Below are positions 15,258 to 36,457 of a stretch of DNA of 59,390 bases, in pieces. Origin of the DNA: an uncultured Elusimicrobia bacterium (GTDB lineage Bacteria; Elusimicrobiota; Elusimicrobia; UBA1565; UBA9628). Made by a program: the position numbers and the translations under genes. The stretch lies in NCBI GenBank assembly GCA_964623465.1, contig CAZURZ010000002.1:1-59390 (forward strand). The letters run 5' to 3'. The stretch's first letter is position 1. Each line of letters begins with the position of its first letter. Under the pieces are notes generated by a model. The model made no database searches. It had not been told where the DNA came from and saw only the letters and a list, made by a program, of their open reading frames with translations.

Positions 15258-15261
15258 CGGC

Positions 15262-15705: not shown

Positions 15706-15711
15706 CGGGCC

Positions 15712-18700
15712 TTACTTCAGATAGGACTCGAGGTTGCGCAGGCGGAACGCCGCGTCGCCCTGATCCTTCGGCCGCGAGAGGACGATGCGCATGCCGCCGT
15801 TCTTCTCCTGCCAGATCGAGGCCCCGCCGAGGCCGCGCTCGTCGCCGTCGTACTCGAGCCTGAGCGTCAACGGGGCGGTCTTGCCCGAGGCGCGGCGCGC
15901 CTCCCCCATGCGGCGCGCCATGTCGAAGAACGCGCCGTCGCCGTACGCCCCCAACAACGGCGCCCACTGCTCGTCGGCGACCGCGATCGTGAAGCCCTTC
16001 GGCCAGGCGGGGTCGAGCGTGAGCTCGGCCAGGCGGGCCCGGCCGAGCGCGGTCAGGCGGGCCGCCAGAACCCGGTCTCCCGCGGCGAAGTCCTCGATCG
16101 CCGCGCGCTTGACCGCGGCGACGCCGCTCGACATGCGGTCGCGGCGGCGCGCGTCGAGCTTGCGGAAGGACGAAGCGATCATCTCCACGCCGAAATCCCC
16201 CGCCTTGCGGCCGCGGTCGACCGTGAGGCGGTCGAGCTCCTCGGCGGCGAGCATCATCTGGATGGTCGCCATGTTCATCTCGCGGCGCAGGAGCTCGCCG
16301 GCCCAGGAGGCCATCTCGGAGACCGCGCGGGCGGCGGCCTCGCCGAACGCCGCGCCGAGCGCGGCGGAGAGCTCGCCGCCGAGGCGCTCGCTCAGGAACC
16401 GGCGCATCTGCTCGGCGCTCGCCCCTTCGGGAGGGAGCAGGTTCTCGAGATCGGCGCCGTACCGGGCGCGCAGCGCGTCCGCGGCCGAGGCGGGCAGGGC
16501 GTCGAACACCGTCGAGACGACGCGCGGCCGGTCGTAGACGCCGGACGCGACGAGGCGGTCGATGGCCGGGGCGAGGCGGCGGTCGAGCTCGTCCTGCAGG
16601 CGCTCCTGCCCCAGCGCGACGAGGCGCGCCGTGATCATCTCCGGCGTCACCGGACCGTCCGGCATGTCGAGCCGGTCGGCGGCCATGCGCAGCAGCCAGG
16701 GCTCGGCCTCGCCCGCGCGCACCGGCGCCAGCGGCGAGAGGCGGCTGTTGAACGCGCCGAAGGCCGCGAGGAGGACCGGAGCGTGGGTCTTGAAGGAGAT
16801 CGTCTTGTCGAGCACCGGGATGTCGACCGTCTGGGTCTCGTCGAGCGCCGTGAGCAGGGCGCGGCGCCCCGCCGAGATCGCCACCGCGTTCCAGGTCTCC
16901 TGGTCGCCGATGAGCCTCAACACCTCCACGGCGCGGCCGGCGTCGGCGTGCAGGTCGGCCAGAAGCTCCTGGCGCGTCGCGCCGTCGCGCGCGCGCTCGA
17001 GGAACCGGTCCATCGCCGGGCCGAGCGACTCCGAGATCATTCGGCGCAGGCGGCGGTCCGCCTCCGACGCGGCGGGCGCGACGCGCAGCATGACGTCGGC
17101 CAGCACGGCGCGCTGCTCGCCGGTCAGCGGGAGGGCGCTCATGCGGTCGATCAGGGCGCCGGCGGCCTCCGGCCCCAGGCGCCCGAGGGCCAGCGACAGC
17201 GCGTTCATGCCGGCGTCGATCTGCGCGGCGGCCGCGCCCGTGTCGATGAGCCGCACGAGGTCGGTCGCGCGCTCGGCGGCCTGGACGCCGTCGGAAATCG
17301 CGTCGGTGACGACGCGCGTCGCCCCGGGCAGATAAGGCCGCATGACCTGCCCCTTGGTCTCGTACTCCCCGCCGAAGAGATGGTCCACCGTCAGGTTCGC
17401 GCCGCGCTTGCCGTCGAGGTCGACCGTCAATCCCGCGATGATCGCGTCGGAGTTCAGGTCGGCGTTGCCGTACTGGATCTTGTCGCGCTCGTAGGCGAGA
17501 TAGGCGCGCGTCCGGTCGGACAGCTGGGCGTCGACCTGCAGGCGCGCCTTGTCGCGCTCATATTCGATTCCGGGTCCGCTCTCGCGGCTGACGGAGGCGC
17601 GCACAGCGATCGGCACCCGGCGCACGCTCGTCATCAAAGCGGCCTCGCCCTGCGTGACCGTCGTGTCCGCGTTGTAGCGCTGGCCGACCGAGACGCTGAA
17701 GCGCGCGTCGTCCACGCCCGGAACGCGCCCCCACAGAGCGGTCGTCCAATGCGGGGCGTTCTCCAGATTCACGCCGGCCTTCACCCCGCCCTCGCCCATC
17801 AGCTCCTGGTAGACGCGGTTGCCGACCGGCGAGATGTTCTGCATGACGCCGCCGAACACGCCGAGGAACAGCTCGTCGCCCGGAAGGCGGATGCGCAGGC
17901 CGATCGACTCGTCGAAGGCCTGGTTGGGCGCGAGGTGCATCATCTTGGTCAAGCTCGTCACGCTCCAGCCGACGTCCACCGGCCCGCCGAGGTGGTAGGC
18001 GCGCCCCATCTGCGCGAGCAGGCTCGCCACGACGATGCCCTGAGCGCGGTAGGCGTCGTCGTAGGACAGGCTCTGCCGGATCCTGGCGACGTCGTCCGCG
18101 GGCGCCCCGAGCGAGACGGCGAGGTCGGCCAGGCGGCCGACGCGCGGGTCGGGTCCGTCGTGGAAGAAGCGCGCCTTGAGGTCGACGTAGGCGATCTGCG
18201 CCTTGACGCGGTAGTCGACCCACGACTTCGGGTCGCTGTCGACCGCCTTCGTCACGTTGACGTAAGGGCTCGGCATGAGCAGGCTCGAGCGCCCGTCGAT
18301 CCCGAGCTGGCCCACCTCCAGGCTCAGCCCCGTCTTCGGATTGGTCACCGTGACCGAGCGCACCGTCTCGTTGCGCACGCGCGCGTCGAAGACGAGCTCG
18401 TCGCCGGCCCGGGCCCGCTCTCCGAGCGCGGCGGTCCCGTCGAAGACGCCGTCGAGCACCGCGCGGGCCCGGGTGAAGTCCTCGGCGCCCATGGGCTTTC
18501 CGTCGGCCCGCTGGATGTCCACGCCGACCGGCACCGCGAGCCCGCGGGCGCGCAGCGCCGCCTCGCGCTCCTCGACCAGGCGCTGCCCGTCCGGGGTCAG
18601 GAAGCCCTTGGCGTCGACGTACGCCTCCCAGCCCTGCGGCTTGATGAGACGGATCAGCTCGAGGCGGCGCAGGCGGGAGCGCTCGCCGGCCTCGAGGTCG

Positions 18701-19691: not shown

Positions 19692-20015
19692 ATGCTGACC
19701 ATCACCCCGAAGGCCGCCGAGAAGATCACCGATTTCATGAAGTCCGAGGAGAGCGCCGCGGGTAAGTCGCTGCGCCTGCGCGTCGCCGAGTCCGGCTGCG
19801 CCGGCTACGAGTACCGCATCGGCTTCGACGACAAGGCCGCGACGGACAAGGTCCTCCCCCAGGCCGGCTTCGACGTCATCATCGACGAGAAGAGCCTGCA
19901 GTTCGTCGAGAACGCGACGATCGACTACTCCGAGGACGAGACCAGCGCCGGCTTCCGCATCAAGAACCCGCTCGAGAAGGGTTCCTGCGGCTGCGGCAAG
20001 TCCAAGCAGTTCTGA
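19692..20015 (+). CDS. HesB/IscA-family Fe-S cluster insertion protein
   Basis: 107 aa, with Cys in SGCAGYEY and a C-terminal GSCGCG motif. GGAGAA Shine-Dalgarno sequence is present. Confidence 0.85.
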   Translation: MLTITPKAAEKITDFMKSEESAAGKSLRLRVAESGCAGYEYRIGFDDKAATDKVLPQAGFDVIIDEKSLQFVENATIDYSEDETSAGFRIKNPLEKGSCGCGKSKQF

Positions 20016-20019
20016 GCCG

Positions 20020-20340
20020 ATGATCACGCTCACCGAGCGCGCCGCCAAGAAGATCGCCGCGCTGGCCGCCAAGAAGGGCGCGCCGGCGGCCCTGCGCGTG
20101 AAGGTGGGCTCGGGCGGCTGCTCGGGGATGAGCTACGAGTTCTCGGTCGGCGACGAGCCCGGCAAGGACGACCAGGTCCACGAGGCCTTCGGCGCCAAGA
20201 CCATCGTCGATCCCAAGGCGGACTTCTTCATCGGCGGCTCGCAGGTCGACTACGAGGAGACGATGATGAAGTCCGGCTTCGTGGTCAAGAACCCGCAGGC
20301 GACGTCGACCTGCTCCTGCGGCAAGTCGTTCTCGACCTGA
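20020..20340 (+). CDS. HesB/IscA-family Fe-S cluster insertion protein (second paralog)
   Basis: 106 aa, with GGCSGMSY and C-terminal TCSCGKSF. It starts 4 nt after the previous stop. Confidence 0.9.
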   Translation: MITLTERAAKKIAALAAKKGAPAALRVKVGSGGCSGMSYEFSVGDEPGKDDQVHEAFGAKTIVDPKADFFIGGSQVDYEETMMKSGFVVKNPQATSTCSCGKSFST

Positions 20341-20341
20341 T

Positions 20342-20809
20342 TCAGCGCGTCTCGCGCTTGGGGCCGTCGTACGCGTCGAACAGGGCGCGGTGCCCCTTCA
20401 GGGACATCGTTCCCTCGCGCGAGTAGTACTCCGACACCCACTTCAGCAGGAACTCGAGCTTCGAGTCCTGCTCGGCCTTGGAGGCGTACTTCGCCGGCTC
20501 CCAAGGCCGCGCCCGGCAGCGCTCCAGGCAGACCGCCTCGCCGGGGTTCACGAAGACGAGCTCCGGCCTCCAGCGCAGGGACGCCTCGATCAGGTCCGCG
20601 TAGCAGCCCTCGACGATCCAGCCCGGGCCCGCGCAGAACTTCTCGAGGTCGGCGCGCGCGGCGGCCGGGTCGCGCGGAACGGCGATCTTGCCGGGCTCCC
20701 AGGCGATCCGGTCGAGGTCGAGCGAAGGCGCCCCGTGCTTGGCGGAGAGCGCCGCGGCGAGCGTCGACTTGCCCGAACCCGAGTTGCCGATGATCGCGAT
20801 GCGGATCAA
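20342..20809 (-). CDS. P-loop NTPase / nucleotide kinase-like protein (adenylate kinase / topology-modulation family)
   Basis: TTG start gives (M)IRIAIIGNSGSGKSTLA, a Walker A motif. It overlaps the upstream stop as TTGA (20806-20809). Confidence 0.65.
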   Translation of the reverse strand: MIRIAIIGNSGSGKSTLAAALSAKHGAPSLDLDRIAWEPGKIAVPRDPAAARADLEKFCAGPGWIVEGCYADLIEASLRWRPELVFVNPGEAVCLERCRARPWEPAKYASKAEQDSKLEFLLKWVSEYYSREGTMSLKGHRALFDAYDGPKRETR

Positions 20810-21219
20810 AGGCGGTAGAGCATCCAGTAGACGGTCACGCCCGTGACCGAGACGTACAGCCAGATCGGGAACGCCCAGCGCGCGGCGCGCCGGTGCTCCT
20901 CGAAGCGGTCCTTCGCCGCGAGGTAGAGCGTCCGCAGGATCACCGGGAGGACCAGGACGGCCAGGATCGTGTGCGAGAGCAGGATCGAGAAGTAGACGGG
21001 ACGGATCCAGCCCTGCCTCTGGAAGCGCACCGAGCCGACGTGGAAGTGGTAGTAGAGGTAGCAGGCGAGGAACAGCGCCGAGCACAGGAAGGCCGCGACC
21101 ATCGTCCAGCGGTGGGCCTCGCGCTTCCCGGAGCGGATCAGAAACCAGCCCGTGACGAGCAGGGCGGCGGTCGTCGCGTTGAGCGAGGCGTTGAGGGCCG
21201 GGAAGCTCGTCAACTCCAC
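20806..21219 (-). CDS. DUF420-family membrane protein
   Basis: 137 aa with four TM helices and the characteristic N..LN..A..LL..G...I......H...M and H..LA pattern. Confidence 0.75.
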   Translation of the reverse strand: MELTSFPALNASLNATTAALLVTGWFLIRSGKREAHRWTMVAAFLCSALFLACYLYYHFHVGSVRFQRQGWIRPVYFSILLSHTILAVLVLPVILRTLYLAAKDRFEEHRRAARWAFPIWLYVSVTGVTVYWMLYRL

Positions 21220-21220
21220 C

Positions 21221-21628
21221 CTATTCGACCTCTTCGATCTCGACGGCGGCGTGCTTGCCCGAGGTAGGGGCGGGACCGGTGTTGAACCGCGGGTTGTGCT
21301 TTTTCACGAAGGCGCCCGCGATGTCCTTGAGCTCCTCGACGTCCTGGATGTCGGCGGAGGCCACGAAGTCGAAGTAGATGTCGGGCGAGACGGCGAAGAG
21401 CTCCGAGCGGCCGGGCTTGATCTCGTCGCCCATGTGCTTGGCGAGCTCCTCCTGCACCGACGTGCCGGGCATCGCGACGCCGACGTAGAGCACCTGGGGA
21501 TTGCGCTGGGCGTCGAAGGTCACGAACTCGTACACGCCGGGCTTGCGCGGGGCGTGGTCCGGCAGCGCGGCGGGCTTGAAGCGGTAGCAGCGCTCCGACA
21601 TGGCGACGCGGAATTTTCTCACGGACAT
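21221..21628 (-). CDS. hypothetical protein
   Basis: 135-aa ORF packed between the chlorite-dismutase-family and DUF420 genes (1-nt and 16-nt gaps). GVYEF...VLYVG is only faintly GIY-YIG-like. Confidence 0.5.
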   Translation of the reverse strand: MSVRKFRVAMSERCYRFKPAALPDHAPRKPGVYEFVTFDAQRNPQVLYVGVAMPGTSVQEELAKHMGDEIKPGRSELFAVSPDIYFDFVASADIQDVEELKDIAGAFVKKHNPRFNTGPAPTSGKHAAVEIEEVE

Positions 21629-21644
21629 GGCGGGTCTCCTGACG

Positions 21645-22400
21645 TCAGGCCTTCTGCGGGGTGCGCCACACGGCGCGGCCGACGAAGAACGGCCCCAGGT
21701 TCTCGATGTACTGCGAGGTCTGGACCGTGGGGCGCATCGCCTCGACGAGCTGGGAGAGCGGCGCGAGCTCCTTGCCGATCAGGCCGATGACGAAGTCGTT
21801 GTCGTTCTTGTCGAGGCCGTGGCAGGCCAGGCGGACGTCGGAGGCGTGTCCGGCGTCGCCGAACTGGCGGCCGATGATGCCGTGCTCCTTGAGGATCTGG
21901 CCCTGCTCGGCGCGCGGCAGGCGCGCGAAGGCGCCGCTGCGGCGCAGCGGGTACCAGACCGCCCAGGGCGTCGCGGGATCCATCGTCACGCGGCGCGACC
22001 GGTGGAGCAGCCAGTCCTCGAGCTTCGGCTCGTAGCCGAGCGCGTACGTCCGTCCGAGCATGGAGAACTCGGGCTTGATCGTCAGGTCCTTGAAGGGGCC
22101 GGCGGAGAGGTCGCGGCGCAGCTTGGTCACGAACAGGGCGGGATCCTCCGTCATCGCGAGCACGGCGACTCCCGTCGGGTCGTTGACCTCCTCATAGAGG
22201 ACGCAGTCCACGCCGCAGCCGATCAGGCCGTTGATCAGGGACTGGGCGTCGCGGCAGCCGGAGAACGCCGTCAGCTGCATGAACAGGCGCCGGTCGGAGT
22301 ACTGGGTGACGCCGTCCTTGGGGCCGCCCTTCTCGCGAAGGTCGAGGGGCGCGGCTTCGGACGCGGCTTGCGGCGCGGCGGGCTGGTGGGGGTGGCTCAC
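21645..22400 (-). CDS. chlorite dismutase-family protein (HemQ/Cld-like)
   Basis: 251 aa, with WAVWYPLRR, LKEHGIIG and DFVIGL patterns typical of the family. Confidence 0.75.
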   Translation of the reverse strand: MSHPHQPAAPQAASEAAPLDLREKGGPKDGVTQYSDRRLFMQLTAFSGCRDAQSLINGLIGCGVDCVLYEEVNDPTGVAVLAMTEDPALFVTKLRRDLSAGPFKDLTIKPEFSMLGRTYALGYEPKLEDWLLHRSRRVTMDPATPWAVWYPLRRSGAFARLPRAEQGQILKEHGIIGRQFGDAGHASDVRLACHGLDKNDNDFVIGLIGKELAPLSQLVEAMRPTVQTSQYIENLGPFFVGRAVWRTPQKA

Positions 22401-25768: not shown

Positions 25769-27286
25769 TCAGCGCGTCCAGCCCAACCAGGTCCCGAGGG
25801 CCGTCTTGGCGAACGGAGTCAGGCGCGTGCGGTTGTAGGCGTCGCCGAGCTTGCGCACGGCCTCGGCCTGCGTCGGATAGGGGTGGATGGTCGCTCCGAT
25901 GCCGGCGAGCCCGATGCCGTTGTTGATCGCCACCGAGACCTCGCTGATCATGTCTCCCGCGTGGGAGGCGACGATGGTCGCGCCGAGGATCCGGTCCGTG
26001 CCGTCCTCTGCCAGGATCTTCACGAATCCTTCGGTCTCCCCGTCCAGGATGGCGCGATCCACGTCCTGGAGGCTTTGCACGAAGGTCTTCGTCTTGAGGC
26101 CTTTCGCCAGCGCCTCCTTCTCATACAGCCCTACATGCGCGATTTCGGGATCCGTGTAGGTGCACCACGGGATCGTCAACGCGCTGAATCGCTTCCGCCC
26201 CATGAACAGGGCGTTTTGAATGACGATGCGCGCGGCGAAATCGGCGGTGTGCGTGAACTTGGGCTCGAGGCAGATGTCGCCGGCGGCGAAGATCCTGGGA
26301 TTGGCGGTGCGAAGATGGTCGTCGACCTTGACGCCCGACTTGTCGTAGGCCACGCCGACCGCGTCGAGCCCGAGACCCTCGGTGTTGGGCGTCCGGCCGA
26401 CCGCGACCAGGACCGCGTCGAACTCCTTCGAGCCCGAGGGCCCGTGCTTGCTCTTGAACCGGGCCGTCTTCACGGCGCCGGAACACTCGAGACGCTCGAT
26501 CTCGACGCAGCAGAGGAAATCGACCTCGTCGCGCTCAAGCGACTTGCGCACGATCTCGGCCGCGTCCTGATCCTCCCTCGACAGCATCCCGTGCATGGAC
26601 TCGAACAAGGTCACCTGCGATCCGAAGCGCGCGAAGGCCTGGGCCATCTCCACTCCGATCGGCCCCGCTCCGATGACGAGCAGGCGCTTGGGCAGTTCGG
26701 TCAGAGAGAAGACGGTCTCGTTGGTGAGGGCCGCGGCGTCCTCGAGGCCCGGAATGGGCGGATTCGCCGCTCGCGCGCCCGTGGCGATGACCGCGCGGGT
26801 GAAGCGCAGGGTCTTTCCCCCGACCTCGACCCGGTCGGAGGCGGCGAAACGGCCCTGGCCGACGAACACGTCCACGCCGAGTTTCTTGAAACGAGCCGCC
26901 GAGTCGTTCGCGCTGATGTCCGCTCGCAGGCGGCGCAGACGCTCCATGACGGCCGGGAAATCGACGGAGACTCCGTCGGGGACCTTGACGCCGAATTCTC
27001 CCGCGCGCCTCACCTGCGCGACCGCGCGCGAGGCCCTCAGCAGGGCTTTCGATGGCACGCAACCCGAGTTGAGGCAGTCTCCTCCCATCAGATGCCGCTC
27101 GATCAAGGCGACTTTCGCGCCCAGGCCCGCCGCGCCGGCTGCGGCGACGAGACCTGCGGTTCCGCCGCCGATGACCACGAGGTTGTAGCGCGGCGCCGGT
27201 TCGGGATTGACCCACTGCGGCGGGTGCACGTTGGAGAGCAGCTTCCGGTTGTGCTCATCCATGGGGGAGACCGGTTCGTCAGGCAT
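25769..27286 (-). CDS. FAD-dependent pyridine nucleotide-disulfide oxidoreductase (dihydrolipoyl dehydrogenase / mercuric reductase-like)
   Basis: GGGTAG dinucleotide fold, redox-active CLNSGCVPSK, a second NAD fold (VIGAGPIG) and a C-terminal dimerisation domain with HPYPT. Confidence 0.9.
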   Translation of the reverse strand: MPDEPVSPMDEHNRKLLSNVHPPQWVNPEPAPRYNLVVIGGGTAGLVAAAGAAGLGAKVALIERHLMGGDCLNSGCVPSKALLRASRAVAQVRRAGEFGVKVPDGVSVDFPAVMERLRRLRADISANDSAARFKKLGVDVFVGQGRFAASDRVEVGGKTLRFTRAVIATGARAANPPIPGLEDAAALTNETVFSLTELPKRLLVIGAGPIGVEMAQAFARFGSQVTLFESMHGMLSREDQDAAEIVRKSLERDEVDFLCCVEIERLECSGAVKTARFKSKHGPSGSKEFDAVLVAVGRTPNTEGLGLDAVGVAYDKSGVKVDDHLRTANPRIFAAGDICLEPKFTHTADFAARIVIQNALFMGRKRFSALTIPWCTYTDPEIAHVGLYEKEALAKGLKTKTFVQSLQDVDRAILDGETEGFVKILAEDGTDRILGATIVASHAGDMISEVSVAINNGIGLAGIGATIHPYPTQAEAVRKLGDAYNRTRLTPFAKTALGTWLGWTR

Positions 27287-27911
27287 TCAATCCTTCCTTC
27301 GGCGCCGTCGCGACCTTGGCGGCCAGCGCGCGCTTGGCGGTCCGGCCCACCAGCCACGCCGCGACGGCGGTGGCGATGAGGCCGCCGGCGTACAGCGCCC
27401 ACTCGGCCGGAGTGCGCGCGCGCGCGCCGCCCTTAACCGCCTCCCCCGCCGCGGCGCCGAGGTAGACGTAAAGGAAAGTGCCGGGCATCATCCCGACCCA
27501 GGAGGCCAACGCGTACTCGCCCAAACCCACCGTCGTCAGGCCGTAGCCGTAGTTGAGGAGGTTGAACGGAAGTACGGGCGATAAACGCGTCAAAAACACG
27601 ACCTTTCCGCCTTCGACGCCGATGGCCGCCGCGACGGCTGCGAAGGCGGGAAATCGTTCCAGACGGCGGGACACCCAGTCGCGCAAGAGATAGCGGCCCG
27701 TCAGAAACGCGGCGCACGCGCCGATAGTCGAGCCCGCCGAGACGAGCAGGAGACCCTTCCAAAGACCGAACGCAGCGCCGGCGCCCAACGTGAGCACGGA
27801 ACCAGGAAGGAAGGCGACGCAGGCCAGGACATAGAGCCCCACGAAGACCGCCTGGCCGAAGGGACCGGCCGCGGCGGTCCAGGCCAACGTCGACGCGAGA
27901 AATTCCCTCAT
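27279..27911 (-). CDS. TVP38/TMEM64 (DedA-related) family membrane protein
   Basis: 210-aa polytopic protein with the family pattern (FLPGSVLTLGAGAAFG ... RLSPVLPFNLLNYGYG). It overlaps the oxidoreductase start by 8 nt. Confidence 0.8.
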   Translation of the reverse strand: MREFLASTLAWTAAAGPFGQAVFVGLYVLACVAFLPGSVLTLGAGAAFGLWKGLLLVSAGSTIGACAAFLTGRYLLRDWVSRRLERFPAFAAVAAAIGVEGGKVVFLTRLSPVLPFNLLNYGYGLTTVGLGEYALASWVGMMPGTFLYVYLGAAAGEAVKGGARARTPAEWALYAGGLIATAVAAWLVGRTAKRALAAKVATAPKEGLNA

Positions 27912-28021: not shown

Positions 28022-28735
28022 TTAATCCTGCTTGAGGTAGCCCCCTGCGGCCTGCAAGGGCGCCGGATCGTCGCCGCGCGACACCCACGCGGCGACGCCC
28101 AGACGGCCCGCCCGAGCGGCCAAGTTCTTCTTGAACAGGAAAGCGGCCCGCCCGTTCTTGAGGGGCTGCCGTTCATGCGCCAACACGACGAAGTCGTGAC
28201 GCAGGACTCTTCCGCCGTTCTCGCCGCGCGAGACCGAAGAGGCGACGTCGAACCCGATCAGGACCGCGTGCGCGGTCAAACCGCCCGCGTCGGACCCGTT
28301 GGCCTTGAAGCGGACGACGCCGGAGGCGCCGTCCGAGCGCAGTTCGAGCGCGCCCGCGTCCGACTTCGGCTTGGCCAGAACCGCCGCGCTGCGGCCCGAA
28401 AGCGGGCGCCCGTTGAGGAGAAGCTCAGGGGTCAATAGGCGGCCGTAGGACTGCTGCCGGGCGGTGAATTCCGGGGAGGCGAGCTCATCGCGCCAACCCA
28501 GGTAGTCCCAGTAGTCCACATGAAAAGCCACCGGAACGAAATCCGTCCACAGCCCGGGCTCGCGGCGCAGCGCGCTCAACCAGGCGTCGGCGGGCGGACA
28601 GGAGCTGCAGCCCTCCGAACTGTACAACTCCAAGAGCGACGTCCCGCCGGGCGCGCTGCGGAAGACGCCTTCCGCGGCCCCCGCAGGAAGGCTCCACATA
28701 GACAGGGCGACCAGAGCCGCGGCACGTTTGATCAT
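28022..28735 (-). CDS. DUF1223-family secreted thioredoxin-fold protein
   Basis: ATG at 28735 gives signal peptide MIKRAAALVALSMWSLPAGAA. The hallmark ELYSSEGCSSCPPAD and HVDYWDYLGW motifs are present. Confidence 0.8.
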   Translation of the reverse strand: MIKRAAALVALSMWSLPAGAAEGVFRSAPGGTSLLELYSSEGCSSCPPADAWLSALRREPGLWTDFVPVAFHVDYWDYLGWRDELASPEFTARQQSYGRLLTPELLLNGRPLSGRSAAVLAKPKSDAGALELRSDGASGVVRFKANGSDAGGLTAHAVLIGFDVASSVSRGENGGRVLRHDFVVLAHERQPLKNGRAAFLFKKNLAARAGRLGVAAWVSRGDDPAPLQAAGGYLKQD

Positions 28736-28778
28736 GATAGTTCTCATGCCTACTATACGCATGCGGGCGCGGGCCGGG

Positions 28779-29036
28779 TTATTTTGCCGCGAACTTCCCG
28801 CCCTTCGCGTCGCAGTCCGCCTTCGTCAGCGCGAGCCAGCCCTTTCCCTTGCAGGCGTTCTTGCCCGCGCACGAGTGGCCGACCCCGCCGCACTCTCCCT
28901 GGCCCTTGCACGAATTGACGCCCGAGCACTCGCCCTTGACCTCGGCGACCGCTCCGCCCTTCTTCGCTCCCGCGCAGGCCGCCGACGCGGCCAAGGCGGC
29001 CAGGGCGACGCACGCCACCGCTCGATTCTTCGTCAT
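28779..29036 (-). CDS. small secreted six-Cys protein, bufferin-like (DUF2282-related / 6-Cys type)
   Basis: Signal peptide ends in an ASA|A site. The mature ~60 aa reads C-x5-C-x5-C-x6-C-x5-C-x12-C with repeated G.N.CKG.G units. HSCAGKNACKGKGW...CDAKGGK is reminiscent of DUF2282 metallophore precursors. Confidence 0.65.
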   Translation of the reverse strand: MTKNRAVACVALAALAASAACAGAKKGGAVAEVKGECSGVNSCKGQGECGGVGHSCAGKNACKGKGWLALTKADCDAKGGKFAAK

Positions 29037-29052
29037 AACTCCTCCTTATGAA

Positions 29053-29925
29053 TCACAGTCGTCCCGAAATCGATACCGCGAAGAATGGGGCTCCGTCGGC
29101 CTTGAGCTCGACTCCGGCCCCTTCATAGCGAAGCCGCCTCTGGAGCTGCCAGCCGCCGGACAACTCCGCGCGCGTACCGCGCCAATCCAGAGAGACGCCC
29201 CCTTCCGCGGAGACTTCCCGTCGGGTCAGCCGGCGGCCGTCGAGCTCCGGCCGGCCTCGGCGCGTCCCGAAATCCCGGGAAACGCGATGGCTTCCGCCGC
29301 TGAAGGCCAGGCCTGAGAACAGCTCGACGCGCTTGTCGCCGTCGTCCAACGCCCGGTACTCGACCCGCAGGCGCGGCGGGAGAAGGTTCAAGTTCCAGCG
29401 CCGGTTCAACCGCCAAACCGCGCCCGCGAACGGCGTCACGAGGCTTCCCGCGAATGGGTCCACGGCGAGGCCCGCCGCCAACCGCAAGCCCGGCGACTGG
29501 AGGTAGTTCAAGGTCACGTCCGAAGGCGCGTTGAAAGTCCGCCCGTCGAGGATGCGGTCGCCGTACGCTCCGGGGTTGGCGTTGATGAACACCCACCAGC
29601 GCGGGTCGAGAAGCCACTCGGCGCCCAGCCGCAACGACGCCGCCTGCAGCAGCGACGGCAAGGGCGCCCCGGCCGCGGCCAGCTCCGTCCTGCGGTAGCC
29701 GGCGCCCCCCATCAAGCTCAGGGCCTCCGAGACGGGCACGCGCGCGACGTAAGAGAACTCGGTCTCATCGATCCTCAGCCGTCCCCGGCCGGAGGCGCCT
29801 TCCGATGCGGCCGACGATCCGCCAAGCTTCTCTTGGAAAGAGTACTGATGCAGGAAAACCTCTTCCGCCCGCGCCGCGCCGACGGCCGACCACGCCGACA
29901 GCGCCACGACGATCAAGCGTTTCAT
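29053..29925 (-). CDS. outer-membrane beta-barrel-like protein, unknown family
   Basis: ATG at 29925 (GGAG 6 nt upstream) gives signal peptide MKRLIVVALSAWSAVGAARA. The sequence shows alternating amphipathic strands. Its stop lies 16 nt before the Cys-rich peptide gene. Confidence 0.5.
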   Translation of the reverse strand: MKRLIVVALSAWSAVGAARAEEVFLHQYSFQEKLGGSSAASEGASGRGRLRIDETEFSYVARVPVSEALSLMGGAGYRRTELAAAGAPLPSLLQAASLRLGAEWLLDPRWWVFINANPGAYGDRILDGRTFNAPSDVTLNYLQSPGLRLAAGLAVDPFAGSLVTPFAGAVWRLNRRWNLNLLPPRLRVEYRALDDGDKRVELFSGLAFSGGSHRVSRDFGTRRGRPELDGRRLTRREVSAEGGVSLDWRGTRAELSGGWQLQRRLRYEGAGVELKADGAPFFAVSISGRL

Positions 29926-30085
29926 CCGCATCTCCGCATCCCCTGGCGCCCGCATGCGCGTCGCGCTGCCAACAGTACGCGCGGCCGCGCCGTTTGGATT
30001 CATCGCGCCGCCGCGCGCCGCCTGCGGGAAGTATAATACGATGTCCGCCGTCGCCCCAACCAAGCCGACTGAGTCTGGAGGACGC

Positions 30086-30256
30086 ATGAATATGAAGACG
30101 ATAGTGATGGTGACGGCGATCGCCGCGCTCGCGGGCGCCGCGACGGGATGCTACTGGTGGAACAAGCCCGCCGCGAATTCGTCGACGGAGTCCTGCGCGG
30201 GGCTCGAAGGCACGCTCAAGTCGGACTGCGAGGCGCGCAAGACGGCTCCGCGCTGA
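30086..30256 (+). CDS. mini-lipoprotein (56-aa precursor)
   Basis: GGAGG lies upstream of the ATG at 30086. MNMKTIVMVTAIAALAGAATGC carries a lipobox-like sequence. The mature ~35 aa is CYWWNKPAANSSTESCAGLEGTLKSDCEARKTAPR. The stop lies 8 nt before the radical SAM gene. Confidence 0.45.
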   Translation: MNMKTIVMVTAIAALAGAATGCYWWNKPAANSSTESCAGLEGTLKSDCEARKTAPR

Positions 30257-30263: not shown

Positions 30264-31592
30264 GTGATGCTCGATCCCATCGGCGCCGCGACCCGGCGCG
30301 CGCTCGCCCGGGCTTGGGAGCGCGTGCCCGAGGCCCTGCGGCGACCCGGGCAGTTCCTCGGCCGCCACTACGCGGGCTGCGGCGCCACGATCGGACTGAT
30401 GCCGCGCTGCGATCTTTCCTGCCGGGGCTGCTACCTGGGCTCGGAAGCCGACGCGGCGCGACCCAAGCCGCTCGAGGAGATCAAGGCTCAGGTCCGGATT
30501 CTGCGCGAATGGCTCGGCCCGGGCGGGAACCTCCAGATCACCGACGGCGAAGCGACCTTGCGGCCGGAGGCCGAGCTCGTCGAACTCATCTCTTACGCGC
30601 GCGCCCAGGGTCTCGTGCCCATGCTCATGACGCACGGGGAGACCCTCCGCCGCCGTCCGGGCATGCTCGAGCGGCTCATGGAGCGCGGCGGGCTCACCGA
30701 GATCTCGTTTCACGTGGACACCACGATGCGCGGGCGCCGGGGCGCTTACGGGACGGCGACCCGGGAGGAGGAGCTGCACGGGCTCCGGGCGGAATTCGCG
30801 GAGATGATCCGAGGCGCGCGGCGCAAGACGGGGCGAAAGCTCGAGGCCGCCTCGACGATGACCGTGCACCGGGGCAACCTCGACGAAGTGCCGGGCGTGG
30901 CGCGCTGGTATCTCGCCAATGCCGACGCTTTCAAGATGGCGAGCTTCCTTCCCGTGGCGCCGGTCGGACGCACGGAACAGGACCTGGATGGCGTCGGCGC
31001 CGAAGAGCTTTGGAAGCGCGTGGCCCGGGGCGCCGGACGGCCCGAACTGCTCGACGGTTCCGGCTTCCTCGGTCACCCGGCCTGCAGCCGCTTCGTCCAA
31101 GGCCTCGTTTTCGAAGGCCTGGGCGAAGCGCCCGTCTTCGAACCTCTTTATCAAGTGAATCGAAATGAGGACGCCCGGAGCCTGGAGGCTTTGCTGGCGC
31201 GGCTCGGCGGGGCGAGTTTCCGGCTCGACGGACGCGCGGCGGCGGCTCGCCGCGTCCTCGGGATGCTCGTGCGTCATCCCGGCTTTCTGGCGTCGAGCGC
31301 GCTGCCGCACGCGTGGAGGCTGCTCGGCCGCGCGAGCGACGGCCGGCCTTGGCCGCTGCTGGCCGGCCTGATCGGCGGCCGAGTCCGGGCGCGCTATTTC
31401 AACTTCGTGACCCACCACTTCATGAGCCGGGAGGAGACGGCGACTCCGCTCGGGCAGGAACGCCTATCTCTCTGCGCCTTCCAGGCGCCGGTGGACGGCC
31501 GGCTGACGCCGATGTGCGAGATCAACGCCTCCGGCCTGCGGCAGGACTACTACGAGGGGCGTCAGTCCCGCGAGTTGAGTTCCCAATCATAA
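30264..31592 (+). CDS. radical SAM protein, subfamily not assignable
   Basis: CDLSCRGCY (CxxxCxxC), followed by ITDGEATL, MLMTHGE and ISFHVD core strands. The long C-terminal extension has Cys residues (HPACS, LSLCAF, TPMCEIN) but no obvious SPASM CxxCxxxxxC pattern. Confidence 0.8.
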   Translation: MMLDPIGAATRRALARAWERVPEALRRPGQFLGRHYAGCGATIGLMPRCDLSCRGCYLGSEADAARPKPLEEIKAQVRILREWLGPGGNLQITDGEATLRPEAELVELISYARAQGLVPMLMTHGETLRRRPGMLERLMERGGLTEISFHVDTTMRGRRGAYGTATREEELHGLRAEFAEMIRGARRKTGRKLEAASTMTVHRGNLDEVPGVARWYLANADAFKMASFLPVAPVGRTEQDLDGVGAEELWKRVARGAGRPELLDGSGFLGHPACSRFVQGLVFEGLGEAPVFEPLYQVNRNEDARSLEALLARLGGASFRLDGRAAAARRVLGMLVRHPGFLASSALPHAWRLLGRASDGRPWPLLAGLIGGRVRARYFNFVTHHFMSREETATPLGQERLSLCAFQAPVDGRLTPMCEINASGLRQDYYEGRQSRELSSQS

Positions 31593-32272
31593 GGCAGGAA
31601 CTCGACTTTGAAGTCTTCCGGGATCTTCGACTCCCGGAAGCGATTGGCGTAGGAGATCAGCGAGGGCGCCGCGGCCAGGAAGTCTTCTTTGTACCAGTCC
31701 AGGATGGCGGAGAACCGGACGACGCGCGCCGCCTCGTCGACCTGCACATGCCTTCTTTCACCGAAGAACTCCACGGCCGCCCGGTTGAGCTGCGCCTGCA
31801 GAATTTCCGGCGAGAACGGCTCCCGGGGCAGTCGCGGGCAGCCGCGCACCATGCAGTTCAAGGCGAAGTGGACGCGGGGATCTCCCAAGGGGCGGATCAC
31901 CTTGTTTTCGAGCGCGTGAAGAGACAGCCGCCGCCCGCCCACGTCGTGACGAGAAAGGAAGAAGAACCGGACCTTGGACTTGGGCATCAGGCCCGAGTGC
32001 GCCGCGTGGCTCATCGCCAAGGCGTTGTAGGCGTTGAGGAGGTAGGCCAGACGCGGCGCCCCCTCGGGCACCGCCTCGGGAGCCGTCGCCGCGACGAAGT
32101 CCGTCTGCGCGCGCAGATCCGCGGGATCGGCTTTGACGGCGGCGAAGCCCACGCGCCCGCGCTCGTCGACGAAGCGCTCGAGCACGCGCGGCCACGACGG
32201 ATCATAGACGACGGGCGCGGGCGCGGCATGCCCGACCGAGACGACGAGCAAAGACAAAGCCGGGATGATCAT
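31562..32272 (-). CDS. DUF547-domain secreted protein
   Basis: ATG at 32272 gives signal peptide MIIPALSLLVVSVGHA. LLNAYNALAM, RVHFALNC...GCP and DWYKEDF are hallmarks of the family. Its 3' end overlaps the convergent radical SAM gene by 31 nt. Confidence 0.8.
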   Translation of the reverse strand: MIIPALSLLVVSVGHAAPAPVVYDPSWPRVLERFVDERGRVGFAAVKADPADLRAQTDFVAATAPEAVPEGAPRLAYLLNAYNALAMSHAAHSGLMPKSKVRFFFLSRHDVGGRRLSLHALENKVIRPLGDPRVHFALNCMVRGCPRLPREPFSPEILQAQLNRAAVEFFGERRHVQVDEAARVVRFSAILDWYKEDFLAAAPSLISYANRFRESKIPEDFKVEFLPYDWELNSRD

Positions 32273-32290: not shown

Positions 32291-33046
32291 ATGCTGCCTT
32301 TCATCGGCCCGTTCTGGACCTACGGCCTTTGCAGCGCGGCGGCCTTCGCGGGCTCGTTGTTGTGGCTCAAGTCCCGGCGAGAAGAACTCGGCCTCTCGGA
32401 AAACGCGTTCTGGGCGGCCGCCTGGAGCCTGGTTCTCGGCGCCATCGCCGGAGCCAAAGGCCTGTTCGTCGTCCTGGCCTGGGAGCACTACTCGTCGGGC
32501 CGGCTCCGTTTTTTCGCCGATTTCGGCGCGGGCTTCGTCTTCTTCGGAGGCCTCGCGGGCGCGACGCTCGCCGGCCTGCTCTTCGCTCGGATCATGAAGG
32601 CGTCCTTCCTGCGCGGCGCCGACTATTTCGCCGTCGTCTTGCCTCTGGGTCATGCGGTCGGACGTTTGGGATGCCTCGCGGCCGGCTGCTGCCCGGGCGC
32701 GCCCTCGAGCGCGCCCTGGGCCGTGCGATTCACGCACCCCGCCTGCCTCATTCCGGAGCCCCTTCGCGGAGTCCCCCTCCACCCCGTGCAGCTCTATGAG
32801 GCCGCCGGGCTGATCTTCGTCGGCCTGGCCGCGGCGCGGACCTTGAGCGCGACGCGCTCCGGCCGCTTGGCCGAGGGATCGGCCTTCCGCGTCTATCTCG
32901 CGCTCTACGGCGCGCTGCGGCTGCTGATGGACGCCCTACGAGGCGACGGGCGGCCCGAGCGATATTGGGGGCTGTCGCACCAACAGGGACTCGCCCTCCT
33001 TTGCATCGCGGCGGCGGCGCTGATGGGCGCGCGCGCCAAGAAATAG
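32291..33046 (+). CDS. lgt: prolipoprotein diacylglyceryl transferase family protein
   Basis: AGGAGG lies 11 nt upstream. Polytopic protein with HPVQLYEA and LRGDGRP motifs. The central motif is the variant GRLGCLAAGCCPG. Confidence 0.75.
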   Translation: MLPFIGPFWTYGLCSAAAFAGSLLWLKSRREELGLSENAFWAAAWSLVLGAIAGAKGLFVVLAWEHYSSGRLRFFADFGAGFVFFGGLAGATLAGLLFARIMKASFLRGADYFAVVLPLGHAVGRLGCLAAGCCPGAPSSAPWAVRFTHPACLIPEPLRGVPLHPVQLYEAAGLIFVGLAAARTLSATRSGRLAEGSAFRVYLALYGALRLLMDALRGDGRPERYWGLSHQQGLALLCIAAAALMGARAKK

Positions 33047-33055: not shown

Positions 33056-33790
33056 CTACCGCGACAGTCCGATCGCGGCGCGCAACTCGCCGATCTCCGC
33101 GTCGGAATGTCCCTGGAGCCCGTAGGCGCCGTCCGGCGTGAACGACGGTTCCTGAAGCGCCCCATGACCCTCGGAGGAGATTTCCGGCTCGGGGAAATCG
33201 CCGGAAAGTCCGATGCGGCCGTGACAGATGCAGACGTAGGCGCGGCCCTCACGGACCTTCACGATGAAATCGGTTCCCAACGCCGTGACGCGGCTGTGCG
33301 GGGTCTTCACGCTGTAGCGGGCTCCGTTGCGGACCGCGTTGAGCAGCCAGCCCGAATCGACGACCACCTCGACGCCCCCGTCGCGCGCATGGACGCGCGC
33401 CCGCCCGCCCCGGCTGAGCCGGAAGCCGCCGGCGCCGCCGATGCGCACGACCGCCTCGCCGTCCGCGGCGACGGAGATCTCCTGGCCGCCGGAGACGCCG
33501 GCCCCCGCGGACGCGGGACGGCCTCCCACCGAGACGGCACCGGCCGTGGAAACGACCGTGATCGATTCCGAGCCGCGCGGGATCATGTAGACGGCAAGCA
33601 GGACGACCGCCGTCGCGGCCGCGAACGCCGGCAGCGCCCAACGACGGGAGACGAGCGGCGGGCGGACGTCGCCGCGCAGCGACGCCATGATCCTTCCCTT
33701 AAGAGCCGCGGGAGGCCTGCGCTCCGGCGCCGCGTGCGCCAGAAGCGCCGCGATCTCCGGATCCATGGGGTCGTGATCTTCCTGGTTCAT
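33056..33790 (-). CDS. anti-sigma factor with FecR-like periplasmic domain
   Basis: It starts 1 nt after the sigma-gene stop. It has an N-terminal cytoplasmic segment, one TM helix (ALPAFAAATAVVLLAV) and a FecR-type domain (VKTPHSRVTALGTDFIV). A C-terminal VCICHG motif is present. Confidence 0.7.
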   Translation of the reverse strand: MNQEDHDPMDPEIAALLAHAAPERRPPAALKGRIMASLRGDVRPPLVSRRWALPAFAAATAVVLLAVYMIPRGSESITVVSTAGAVSVGGRPASAGAGVSGGQEISVAADGEAVVRIGGAGGFRLSRGGRARVHARDGGVEVVVDSGWLLNAVRNGARYSVKTPHSRVTALGTDFIVKVREGRAYVCICHGRIGLSGDFPEPEISSEGHGALQEPSFTPDGAYGLQGHSDAEIGELRAAIGLSR

Positions 33791-33791
33791 G

Positions 33792-34394
33792 TCAAACGTG
33801 CGCCTTGAGCAGCTCCGCCAACTTTCTCATGCCCAGCCGCACGCGCGTCTTGACGGTTCCCAACGGCTCCCCCGTCTCGGCCGCGATCTGCGACTGGCTG
33901 AGTCCGTCGAAAAATGAAGCCTCGAGGGCGCGCCGTTGCTCGTCGGGGAGCGCGCTCAAAGCCCGCCTCACGACGGCCTGCGTTTCAGCGCGCAGCATGT
34001 CCTCGACGGCCATCGGCGCGTCGTCGGCCGGCTCGGGCGAGTCGGCCGCCGGCTGCGATTCGTGCCTCCTCAACACGGCGCGGCTGCGCAGCCTGTCCAG
34101 GCAACGGCTGCGCGTCATCGTCACGGACCAAGCGCGAACCGAGCCCCGCGCCGGATCATAACGGCCGGCTTCACGCCACATCTTGAGCATGACCTCCTGA
34201 ACGACTTCCTGCGCGTCTTCTTCGCTGCCGAGCATCCGGCAAGCCAGCGAGAACAGCAACGGCGACTGCAGGTCGTACAGCCGCGAGAAGGCGCTCTCGT
34301 CCCGCGCGCGGGCGACGCGGGACAGGCAGTCGGCCTCTTCGCCCAGCATGGCCCTCTGCTCAGATATACGCGCCGCGGCTTCGTCCGGATTCAT
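33792..34394 (-). CDS. ECF-type RNA polymerase sigma-70 factor
   Basis: ATG at 34394. Region 2 is FSRLYD...L...A..ML....DA.EVVQEV..K.W and region 4 is LP..QR.AL....F.GLSQSQIAAETG.PLGTVKTR. Confidence 0.85.
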   Translation of the reverse strand: MNPDEAAARISEQRAMLGEEADCLSRVARARDESAFSRLYDLQSPLLFSLACRMLGSEEDAQEVVQEVMLKMWREAGRYDPARGSVRAWSVTMTRSRCLDRLRSRAVLRRHESQPAADSPEPADDAPMAVEDMLRAETQAVVRRALSALPDEQRRALEASFFDGLSQSQIAAETGEPLGTVKTRVRLGMRKLAELLKAHV

Positions 34395-34533
34395 GGATTG
34401 AGAGCCACGATACCACTTTAAACGATGAATCCGAATCCCCGGGCGGCGCGTAATGATTTGGAGAGGGCCGCAAGCGAGGGTTCCACTCGACTCAAAGAAT
34501 TGCGATGATCGCTGATCCCAGGAGGAATTGCCC

Positions 34534-35580
34534 ATGCCCGTCGATATCGAAGCCGGCGTCCGCGACTATTACGGCAAAACCCTCAAGAGCGGCGCCGACC
34601 TGAAGACCGACGCCTGCTGCTCCCCCTCGGATCTGCCTCGGGCCGTGCGCGACGCCCTTTCGAAGGTGAGCGACGAGGTCGTCTCCCGCTACTACGGCTG
34701 CGGCCTGACCATCCCGAACGAGTTGACGGGACTCAGCGTCCTCGACCTGGGCTCCGGTTCGGGGCGAGACTGCTACATCCTCTCCCAGCTCGTCGGCCGC
34801 GAGGGGCGCGTGACCGGCGTCGACATGACCGACGAGCAGCTGGCGGTCGCGGAGCGCAACCGGGCGCACCACGCTCAGGTCTTCGGCTACGGCAACGTCG
34901 AATTCCTCAAGGGCGACATCTCACGTCTCGATGCGCTCGGCCTCGAAGACGCGTCCTTCGATCTGATCGTTTCCAACTGCGTCATCAATCTGGCGCGCGA
35001 CAAGAAGGCCGTGCTGCGCGAAGCCAAGCGGGTTCTGAAGGAAGGCGGTGAGCTGTATTTCTCGGACGTCTACGCCGACCGGCGCGTGCCCGCGGAGCTC
35101 AGGGAAGATCCCGTGCTGTACGGCGAGTGCCTCGGCGGCGCGCTTTACTGGAACGATTTCCTTCAGTTGGCCAAGAGCGCCGGATTCGCCGACCCCAGGC
35201 TCGTGGAATCGCGGCCCCTGTCGGTCGACGCCGGCCCGATACGGGATCGCGTCGGAGACATCCGGTTCTATTCGGCGACCTACCGGCTCTTCAAGCTCGC
35301 CGGGCTCGAGCCCGCGTGCGAGGACTTCGGCCAGGCCGTGCGCTACAAAGGGACGCTTCCGGACGCCCCGTCGGCGTTCCTGCTCGACGGCCATCACCGC
35401 TTCGAATCCGGACGCATCATGACCGTGTGCGGCAACACCGCCCTGATGCTCGAAAAGACCCGTTTCCGCCGCCACTTCGAATTCTTCGGCGACACGACGA
35501 AGCACTTCGGCATCTTTCCGGGCTGCGGGACGAGCATCCCTTTCTCCGCGGAGCAGAAGAACGATGGCGCCTGCTGCTAA
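34534..35580 (+). CDS. arsM: arsenite S-adenosylmethionine methyltransferase (ArsM-type)
   Basis: AGGAGGA lies 7 nt upstream of the ATG at 34534. An N-terminal Cys pair (DACCSP), the SAM motif VLDLGSGSG and conserved Cys residues (SNCVINL, GECLGG) are present, with a C-terminal CC. Confidence 0.8.
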   Translation: MPVDIEAGVRDYYGKTLKSGADLKTDACCSPSDLPRAVRDALSKVSDEVVSRYYGCGLTIPNELTGLSVLDLGSGSGRDCYILSQLVGREGRVTGVDMTDEQLAVAERNRAHHAQVFGYGNVEFLKGDISRLDALGLEDASFDLIVSNCVINLARDKKAVLREAKRVLKEGGELYFSDVYADRRVPAELREDPVLYGECLGGALYWNDFLQLAKSAGFADPRLVESRPLSVDAGPIRDRVGDIRFYSATYRLFKLAGLEPACEDFGQAVRYKGTLPDAPSAFLLDGHHRFESGRIMTVCGNTALMLEKTRFRRHFEFFGDTTKHFGIFPGCGTSIPFSAEQKNDGACC

Positions 35581-36457
35581 GTGGGCGGTCGCCGAGACCA
35601 CGGCGAAAGGCCGGCCTCGCGCCGCGGTCGCGCCCGTCGCGCTGAAGACCCTGTGGTTCAACACCGGCACCCGCTGCAACATCGAGTGCGAGAACTGCTA
35701 CATCGAGTCGTCTCCGCGCAACGACCGCCTCGAATACCTGCGCCTGACCGAGATCGCGCCTTTTCTCGACGAGGCGGAGCGGATGGGCGCGAGCGAGATC
35801 GGCTTCACCGGGGGCGAGCCGTTCATGAACCCGGATCTGCTCGCCATGGCCGAGGAATGCCTGAAGCGAGGCTTCTCCGCGCTCATCCTGACCAACGCGA
35901 TGGCGCCGATGACGAATCGAAAGCGGGAGCTGCTGGACCTGCGCGAGCGCCGTCCCGCGGGCCTGCGTCTGCGCGTCTCGCTCGATCATCACACCCCCGC
36001 CGCCCACGACGCTGAACGCGGCGCGGGCGCCTTCGACAAGACGATGGCCGGACTGCGCTGGCTGCTCGAATCCGGATTCGAAGCCTCCGTCGCGGGACGG
36101 ACCTTCGTCGATGAAGACGAAGCCGCCGCGCGCGCGGGATACCGGCTCGCGATCGGGCGAGACGTCCCCCTGACGATTTTTCCCGAGATGGGCGCCGGCG
36201 ACGAGCTCCCCGAGATCACCACCGAGTGCTGGGGCATCCTCGGCAAGTCGCCGGATGCGATGATGTGCGCCTCCTCACGCATGGTGGTCAAGCGCCGCGG
36301 CGAAACGCGCCCCGCCGTGCTGGCGTGCACGCTCATACCGTACGACGCGCGATTCGAGCTCGGAGAAACGCTGGAGGCGTCCTGGCGCCCGGTCGCGCTT
36401 CAACACCCGAACTGCGCCTCGTTCTGCGTGCTCGGCGGCGGGTCCTGCGCCGCGTGA
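35564..36457 (+). CDS. radical SAM protein with Cys-rich C-terminus (ArsS / 'radical SAM/Cys-rich domain' family-like)
   Basis: CNIECENCY (CxxxCxxC), GFTGGEPF, and a C-terminal HPNCASFCVLGGGSCAA. It overlaps arsM by 17 nt and is followed by a coupled GT2-like gene. Confidence 0.6.
   Translation: MAPAAKWAVAETTAKGRPRAAVAPVALKTLWFNTGTRCNIECENCYIESSPRNDRLEYLRLTEIAPFLDEAERMGASEIGFTGGEPFMNPDLLAMAEECLKRGFSALILTNAMAPMTNRKRELLDLRERRPAGLRLRVSLDHHTPAAHDAERGAGAFDKTMAGLRWLLESGFEASVAGRTFVDEDEAAARAGYRLAIGRDVPLTIFPEMGAGDELPEITTECWGILGKSPDAMMCASSRMVVKRRGETRPAVLACTLIPYDARFELGETLEASWRPVALQHPNCASFCVLGGGSCAA

Follow-up and report, generated by a model that had tools for sequence, protein, structure and literature searches.

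Bufferins form a very large, recently described class of RiPPs (peptides made by ribosomes and modified after translation) that buffer copper in the periplasm. In the bufferin, CysI and CysVI form a disulfide and the four central cysteines become thiooxazoles, with a mass change of -18 Da (PMC11626156). The closest described system is bufferin 2 of Caulobacter vibrioides (BufA2/BufB2/BufC2, CCNA_02999-03001), and the Caulobacter buf operons belong to a copper regulon under an extracytoplasmic function (ECF) sigma factor, SigF (PMC11626156). The second point of comparison is the stand-alone precursors: sizeable proportions of bufferin precursors are unlinked to MNIO genes, and these have been proposed to be modified by enzymes from another locus or to remain unmodified (Leprevost et al. 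2025, PMC12452194). According to the same work, none of the 864 complete genomes with Buf2 lacks an MNIO, extra conserved genes are very rare, and the flanks of stand-alone precursors are not conserved. Here we analyze a 59,390-bp stretch of DNA from an uncultured Elusimicrobia bacterium (contig CAZURZ010000002.1; hereafter the window), in which three closely packed minus-strand open reading frames (ORFs) encode a predicted outer-membrane β-barrel, an 85-aa six-cysteine peptide and a DUF1223 protein with a CxxC motif. We consider it likely that a rearrangement within one regulon orphaned the peptide, a BufA2 precursor that is probably matured in trans.

The peptide belongs to the same precursor family as Caulobacter BufA2. 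It matches NF050166 (Cu_RiPP_BufA2, a curated NCBIfam equivalog) with 61.7 bits against a cutoff of 60, over model positions 6-78 of 79, which bears out the resemblance to bufferins that a sequence-only reading of this DNA had pointed to; a Pfam scan of the peptide gives no match. The core spacing C-x5-C-x5-C-x6-C-x5-C-x12-C, given in that same reading, is read directly from the sequence, and the six cysteines (C37, C43, C49, C56, C62 and C75) are invariant across 33 homologues, as are the flanking Gly, Asn and Lys residues. A database search with the peptide returns 304 homologues. Over the core it shares 73% identity with a Bdellovibrionales BufA2 from a canonical YceI-BufA2-BufA2-MNIO-DUF2063 operon, and the peptide is 95% identical to the homologue P0001 and 76% identical to that of locus L001, the nearest relative of the window, with all cysteines retained. 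Within the clade, orphan and MNIO-adjacent peptides score alike on NF050166 (62-71 bits; 62-70 bits for the MNIO-adjacent ones). By the family model the peptide is a true BufA2, in which thiooxazoles and copper binding are predicted.

As in Caulobacter bufferin 2, the precursor is preceded by a Sec-type signal. This signal peptide (MTKNRAVACVALAALAASAAC/AG, read from the sequence by eye) stands in place of a RiPP leader, and those of relatives have LAAGC. The peptide is probably a lipoprotein; a lipoprotein-type signal has been reported for ~16% of Buf2 precursors (PMC12452194). An AlphaFold2 model with a mean predicted local distance difference test (pLDDT) score of only 60 places strands at residues 34-38, 67-71 and 81-84 and a helix at 72-77. 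In this only moderately confident model CysI falls in a strand and CysVI in a short helix, which matches the published description and the predicted layout of the six cysteines in Caulobacter bufferin 2. A sequence search of the PDB found no solved bufferin structure and, given this together with the pLDDT of 60, the assignment of the peptide to the bufferin fold stays qualitative. The window differs from the Caulobacter system in having no bufB or bufC, a lipoprotein-like precursor, an outer-membrane barrel gene upstream and, in its relatives, YceI downstream; its anti-sigma factor is FecR-like, whereas that of Caulobacter is NrsF. Close relatives of the locus do carry BufB (NF050167) and BufC (PF09836) directly after the precursor.

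The three genes are as tightly spaced as the sequence-only reading had described, with 16 nt between barrel and peptide and 43 nt between peptide and DUF1223. The latter gap is counted from a start codon at 28735 (MIKR...), which is most likely the true one because its context, ATCATGATCAAACG, is conserved in L001 and in a further locus, L023. The features of the locus are collected below.

Table. Features of the barrel-BufA2-DUF1223 locus and its putative regulon, in coordinates of the window
Feature	Position	Strand	Remarks
Outer-membrane beta-barrel, predicted	29053-29925	-	290 aa; Sec signal peptide (ARA/EE); distant DUF6268-like
BufA2-family bufferin precursor	28779-29036	-	85 aa; lipobox-like signal (AASAAC); six-Cys core
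DUF1223 ORF as called	28022-28762	-	from the ORF listing
DUF1223 thioredoxin-fold periplasmic protein	28022-28735	-	CSSCPP; 237 aa counted from the conserved MIKR start
VTT/DedA-type membrane protein	27279-27911	-	PF09335, E 1e-25; same-strand downstream neighbour of DUF1223
MerA-like FAD pyridine-nucleotide-disulfide oxidoreductase	25769-27286	-	NF004991, 804 bits; 8-nt overlap with the VTT gene
Putative relic of the DUF1223 operon's ECF promoter	28756-28782	-	compared with the L001 and L023 upstream regions
ECF-type promoter motif	29976-30002	-	exact; ~50 nt upstream of the barrel start codon
ECF-type promoter motif	34367-34393	-	on the sigma gene's annotated start
ECF-type promoter motif	34426-34452	+	upstream of a methyltransferase-radical SAM pair
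ECF sigma factor	33804-34394	-	tblastn 49-55% identity, E 1e-52 to 1e-66, to the relatives' sigma
FecR-like anti-sigma factor	33071-33826	-	PF04773, E 1.6e-5; 37-39% identical to the L001, L018 and L020 partners

On the left of the locus the window continues for 28.0 kb and on the right for 29.5 kb, and the genes for MNIO and DUF2063 are absent from all of it, as the sequence-only reading had held for the neighbourhood. With eight MNIO and DUF2063 seed proteins from four loci, including the closest lineage, tblastn gives only matches at E > 0.1, and with three YceI seed proteins it finds nothing. Profile hidden Markov models (HMMs; 7 MNIO, 7 HvfC_N and 5 YceI sequences), run with --max on all 698 six-frame fragments, reach a best E of 0.86, and Pfam scans of 27 window ORFs show no PF05114 and no PF09836. 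Since the tblastn and profile searches are both empty, we reject a hidden or degraded copy of any of the three genes in the window.

The window BufA2 is in this respect like the stand-alone precursors of PMC12452194, from which it differs in the strict conservation, within Elusimicrobiota, of the barrel gene upstream. The 290-aa product of this gene is confidently predicted to be an outer-membrane β-barrel, as the sequence-only reading had supposed: its AlphaFold2 model (pLDDT 89.1, predicted TM-score 0.80) is all-beta with ~14 strands, and Foldseek returns 124 PDB matches at E <= 1e-3, of which the best 50 of 124 are all outer-membrane barrels; autotransporter beta-domains, OmpG, FadL/TodX and COG4313 are among the matches listed. 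The C-terminal residue is L, F or W across the family, which comprises ~670 clusters at 50% identity. PF19783 (DUF6268) is matched by 34 of 39 sampled relatives of the barrel detected by HMM. The window barrel resembles this family in size (~290 aa) and in being all-beta; it has no PF19783 match itself at E <= 0.1 and a weak MipA match at 20 bits. The one distant DUF6268 member that was looked up, L012, has no BufA2 neighbour, so that the link to BufA2 appears specific to one barrel subfamily of Elusimicrobiota. Among the loci retrieved, close relatives of the barrel are restricted to metagenome-assembled genomes (MAGs) of Elusimicrobiota and to metagenomes; the search was pattern-based and specific to the close subfamily, and its counts are correspondingly small (three loci from GTDB genomes, five from JGI metagenomes).

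The BufA2 gene directly follows the barrel gene in 13 of 13 independent loci, all from Elusimicrobiota (the window, L001, L007, L009, L010, L013-L017, L018, L020, L021 and L022; L008, L011 and L019 were set aside as duplicates of L007 and L018). In the closest clade (L018/L019, L020 and L022), with barrels 57-62% identical to that of the window, the genes stand in the order barrel-BufA2-MNIO(BufB)-HvfC_N/DUF2063(BufC)-YceI, with overlaps or gaps of <= ~160 nt, accompanied by a divergent pair of ECF sigma and FecR-like anti-sigma genes. The L018 MNIO is a BufB by the family model NF050167 (MNIO_BufB; 361 bits, cutoff 310). When 14 barrels are placed in a neighbour-joining tree, the window and L001, whose barrels are 79% identical over the whole length, nest inside this MNIO-adjacent clade. 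A second barrel clade, at 40-47% identity, consists of stand-alone pairs of a barrel and a BufA2, here called BufA2'. In L009 such a pair lies on the same strand as the enzymes, in the order BufA2-MNIO-HvfC(DUF2063)-barrel-BufA2' with gaps of 36 nt and 8 nt, and in L010 it lies ~3 kb from bufABC; five other loci of this clade show no MNIO within the available flanks. Elusimicrobiota Buf2 clusters are headed by a conserved outer-membrane barrel and often end in YceI, neither of which is reported in the published surveys. PMC12452194 makes no mention of barrels, YceI, thioredoxin-fold proteins or Elusimicrobia, and our literature search found nothing linking DUF1223 or DUF6268 with bufferins, Elusimicrobia with DUF692, or a bufferin with an outer-membrane protein.

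Several minor features of these clusters were also observed. YceI is constant in the Buf2 clusters of L002, L005, L018, L020 and L022; loci of the Bdellovibrionota type have it upstream of BufA2, and Elusimicrobiota have it downstream of BufC. Where a genome holds two BufA2 copies, a His-rich linker (HKHHG, SHHHDD) follows the lipobox in the MNIO-adjacent copy and is missing from the barrel-adjacent one (L009 8066-8377; L010 6959-7084 region). L024 holds a different operon (3831-5599, minus strand) for a 312-aa barrel with a weak Phenol_MetA_deg match, a DsbD_TM-like protein and a 109-aa six-Cys BufA; it has its own ECF motif, is divergent from a DUF1223-MsrAB set and has no MNIO on its 12-kb contig.

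Predicted control by an ECF sigma factor is a further likeness to the Caulobacter system. A motif of the ECF type, TGAATCC-N16-CGTA, is common to the regions upstream of the operons that we assign to one regulon. Three exact copies occur in the window, against 0.33 expected (one mismatch allowed), and none of 100 shuffles reached three. In other loci the motif lies upstream of the barrel (L001, L018 and L020), of DUF1223 (L001, L023 and L024) and of orphan six-Cys BufA genes (L001 and L024); it is not present at the barrel loci of the second clade. The ECF sigma factor and the FecR-like anti-sigma factor of the window are orthologous to the pair adjacent to barrel-BufA2-BufB-BufC-YceI in L018 and L020, with 49-51% and 38-39% identity. 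In every locus the motif overlaps the annotated first codons of the sigma gene (ATGAATCC...; L001 4776-4802, L018 9022-9048, L020 1801-1827, L023 5832-5858, L024 7529-7555), a coincidence that suggests autoregulation of this gene and a true start codon farther downstream than annotated. The plus-strand copy in the window precedes genes for an S-adenosylmethionine (SAM) methyltransferase with a C-terminal GACC and a radical SAM protein (34528-36457), whose counterparts in L023 are 86% and 82% identical. A methyltransferase/radical-SAM/DUF2064/PHO4 set of similar make-up, reminiscent of arsenic-related genes, stands beside a canonical BufA2 operon in L005 (Bdellovibrionales) and beside BufA in L023.

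The boundary between BufA2 and DUF1223 retains the trace of a second promoter of this kind. Compared with the regions upstream of DUF1223 in L001 and L023, the -10 element CGTA (28756-28759), the 5' untranslated region and the start context are all retained, while the -35 element is degenerate (ATAACCC, four of seven positions) and shares bases with the stop codon of BufA2 (28779-28781). With the -10 of the DUF1223 promoter intact and the -35 gone at the BufA2 stop, this boundary is, as judged from the aligned promoters, the fusion junction of two operons of the same regulon, from between which the intervening DNA was removed. Phylogenetic inference identifies the removed DNA as bufB-bufC-yceI. 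The join lies inside the DUF1223 promoter and its -35 is lost, so that the barrel, BufA2, DUF1223, VTT and MerA-like genes are now probably expressed as one ECF-driven transcript; no terminator-like structure was found between the barrel and the VTT gene. The window would give a view, down to the base pair, of the way in which joining two operons of a single regulon produces an orphan precursor.

Based on the above data, we propose that the ancestral operon of this lineage ran from an ECF promoter through the outer-membrane barrel, BufA2, BufB (MNIO) and BufC (DUF2063) to YceI. In the window and in L001 the bufB-bufC-yceI part is gone, and the barrel-BufA2 pair would instead have become linked to another operon of that ECF regulon, DUF1223 ... 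VTT-MerA-like. Metal or oxidative stress in the envelope would release the ECF sigma factor and BufA2 would be made; a BufB/BufC pair, if encoded elsewhere in the genome, would convert the four central cysteines into thiooxazoles in the cytoplasm. The peptide would then be exported by Sec and probably lipidated, its CysI-CysVI disulfide would form, and it would buffer periplasmic copper. The barrel may be its outer-membrane partner, whether as an anchor, a channel or a means of surface display, and DUF1223 may be a periplasmic CxxC reductant that normally serves MsrAB.

Maturation in trans, one of the two explanations offered by the sequence-only reading, fits the evidence with the source of bufB and bufC assumed. 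It is favored by the sequence constraints on the peptide, which are those of the MNIO-linked copies, by the MNIO present in every one of the 864 Buf2-containing genomes (PMC12452194), and by a related MAG, GCA_016212855.1: this MAG shares 82-89% identity with the window in genes around the locus, and it carries bufB and bufC plus unlinked precursors. The locus is, in our reading, a new architecture of a known system in three ways: the Buf2 cluster is barrel-led, the copy is orphaned, and the ECF regulon also takes in a DUF1223/Msr/VTT-MerA island. It is unlikely to be a new kind of metal-handling module or chemistry. Orphan bufferin precursors have already been described; what appears to be new is the barrel partner together with the shared regulon.

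Several points weigh against this proposal. The peptide clears the BufA2 cutoff by only 1.7 bits, and among the conserved residues of the barrel there is no His, Met or Cys to hint at copper binding. The bufB/bufC pair acting in trans is itself inferred; the 11-kb contig of L001, the nearest relative, is likewise free of MNIO, so that the enzymes could be missing from the whole sublineage of the window and L001. The promoter is putative, being read from a sequence motif, and the direction of the rearrangement relies on the neighbour-joining tree of 14 barrels and on parsimony.

Among the alternatives, the one that survives best was also raised by the sequence-only reading as an undescribed module served by DUF1223 and the barrel. 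It holds that BufA2 acts independently of MNIO, as an unmodified Cys-rich lipoprotein buffering metal or oxidants by its thiols, with DUF1223 reducing its cysteines or forming their disulfides and the barrel as outer-membrane partner. The empty 59 kb of the window and the L001 contig, with neither MNIO nor DUF2063, agree with such a role, as does the literature, which allows for rare precursors acting unmodified (PMC12452194). DUF1223 is assigned to PF06764 with E 4.9e-37 and 128.4 bits (gathering score 30.7), as the sequence-only reading had named it, and is a secreted CxxC protein of the thioredoxin fold, its CSSCPP aligning to CASCPP of the best solved relative, 2AXO (E 1.5e-17); it begins 43 nt after the peptide and, its own -35 being lost, is probably co-transcribed with it. 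Its distribution speaks against a partnership. The sequence-only reading had named a lack of joint conservation of the three genes elsewhere as a refutation; joint conservation stands for barrel and BufA2 and fails for DUF1223: members of this very large family (>7,400 matches) occur near BufA2 in only 2 of the 13 loci, the window and L001, and in L001 an opposite-strand glyoxalase gene and an Lgt fragment intervene between the two. DUF1223 instead keeps MsrAB and DsbD_TM as conserved neighbours, and in one protein (P0374) it is fused to MsrB (SelR). The peptide, moreover, is constrained like MNIO-linked copies (73% core identity, six cysteines and flanking Gly, Asn and Lys invariant), the closest relatives of the barrel head canonical operons with bufB and bufC (and YceI), and no Buf2-containing complete genome of the 864 lacks an MNIO. 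We regard MNIO independence as unlikely, and its fuller form, in which BufA2 of the window and L001 joins DUF1223, VTT/DedA, MerA-like and a dedicated barrel in a thiol-based module for envelope metal and oxidant buffering, as no more likely. If true, it would mean that a RiPP precursor has been repurposed as an ordinary Cys-rich protein. The observation made from the sequence is confirmed, and its interpretation is supported in part.

Extracytoplasmic methionine-sulfoxide repair systems of the CcdA/DsbD-thioredoxin-MsrAB type are known, and the relatives of the window DUF1223 resemble their thioredoxin component in position. The two closest homologues with a known context, in L023 and L024, are 70-73% identical to it and belong to islands in which a DsbD_TM gene adjoins DUF1223-MsrA/MsrB-(ECF sigma-anti-sigma)-...-DUF547-VTT-MerA-like (DsbD_TM and DUF1223-MsrAB at L023 9184-11749 and L024 4249-7467). 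DUF1223 thus sits between the DsbD_TM gene and a secreted MsrA-MsrB fusion; in contrast, the window neighbourhood has neither MsrAB nor DsbD_TM. A secreted CxxC thioredoxin fold beside DsbD_TM and secreted MsrAB suggests that DUF1223 is the periplasmic reductant for extracytoplasmic methionine-sulfoxide repair. We infer that DUF1223 is a co-regulated neighbour of the precursor rather than a bufferin partner or maturase. In GCA_016212855.1 the DUF1223 island (L023) and the barrel-BufA2'/bufABC genes (L010) lie on different contigs.

The DUF1223/MsrAB/DsbD_TM/DUF547/VTT-MerA-like operon looks like an island for envelope thiol and oxidative stress. The VTT and MerA-like pairing is conserved in L001, L023 and L024, and the MerA-like protein is 89% identical to its L023 orthologue over the portion available. 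A triad of DUF547, VTT/DedA and MerA-like recurs in the window (25769-27911 and 31562-32270, both on the minus strand), L005 (1-767), L023 (18281-20717) and L024 (9456-12327), and apparently belongs to the same ECF regulon. VTT and MerA-like form a single fused protein in the Bdellovibrionales locus L005, and DUF547 is fused to AhpC/TSA in L023. Within the L023 island of GCA_016212855.1, between DUF1223 and VTT-MerA-like, lies a MerR-MerT-CopZ-HMA metal-handling cassette (15485-17285), which agrees with the island having a role in metal stress. An ECF-type promoter common to the bufferin operon and to the DUF1223/MsrAB/DsbD/DUF547/VTT-MerA-like island defines a testable regulon and offers a functional lead for several DUF families.

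Rearrangement of the locus could alternatively mean that the barrel and peptide genes, having lost bufB and bufC, are non-functional and on the way to pseudogenes; the promoter relic and the departure of bufBC-yceI here, and of MsrAB and DsbD_TM from the island, would all fit such decay. Both ORFs are intact, with a coding-type GC content at third codon positions, and keep an exact ECF promoter; the peptide retains all its cysteines at 95% identity to P0001 and 76% to L001, the barrel its 79% identity to L001, and stand-alone barrel-BufA2' pairs are maintained in many second-clade loci of Elusimicrobiota, which makes a decaying remnant very unlikely. A radical SAM enzyme as alternative maturase of the Cys-rich peptide is hardly credible and we reject it, for although the window enzyme (30264-31592, plus strand; CxxxCxxC domain, PF04055 E 1.3e-10) adjoins the barrel promoter region divergently and the barrel of L013 likewise faces a divergent radical SAM gene, the two are not homologous, tblastn at 1e-4 finds no counterpart of the window enzyme in any of the 24 related loci, and this enzyme shows no SPASM or RiPP-recognition match, its best NCBIfam similarities being weak ones to lipid (Tes) and TrsS enzymes.

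Lastly, some neighbouring genes accompany the rearranged bufferin locus. Divergent from the barrel, a small plus-strand ORF with a strong GGAGG ribosome-binding site (30088-30256) codes for a lipoprotein-like peptide of 55 aa (MNMKTIVMVTAIAALAGAATGC/YWWNKPAANSSTESCAGLEGTLKSDCEARKTAPR); its two further cysteines, in SCAG and DCE contexts, bear a faint resemblance to the bufferin tail. The matching position in L001 is taken by a divergent six-Cys BufA gene; the window ORF was rejected as a degenerate bufferin, since it has no family match and no BLAST similarity to this BufA. A gene for lipoprotein diacylglyceryl transferase, lgt, lies near the locus at 32291-33046 (plus strand), and the lgt fragment of L001 (63 aa; 2186-2374, minus strand) directly follows BufA2. 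Its proximity may be a mark of the history of rearrangement or, given the lipoprotein-like BufA2, a coincidence. Farther away, and in support of an Elusimicrobiota origin of the window, a block of chlorite-dismutase-like, ~135-aa unknown, DUF420 and Fe-S biosynthesis genes (19692-22400) is syntenic with positions 13941-15853 of the Elusimicrobia MAG locus L007, at 72-76% identity.

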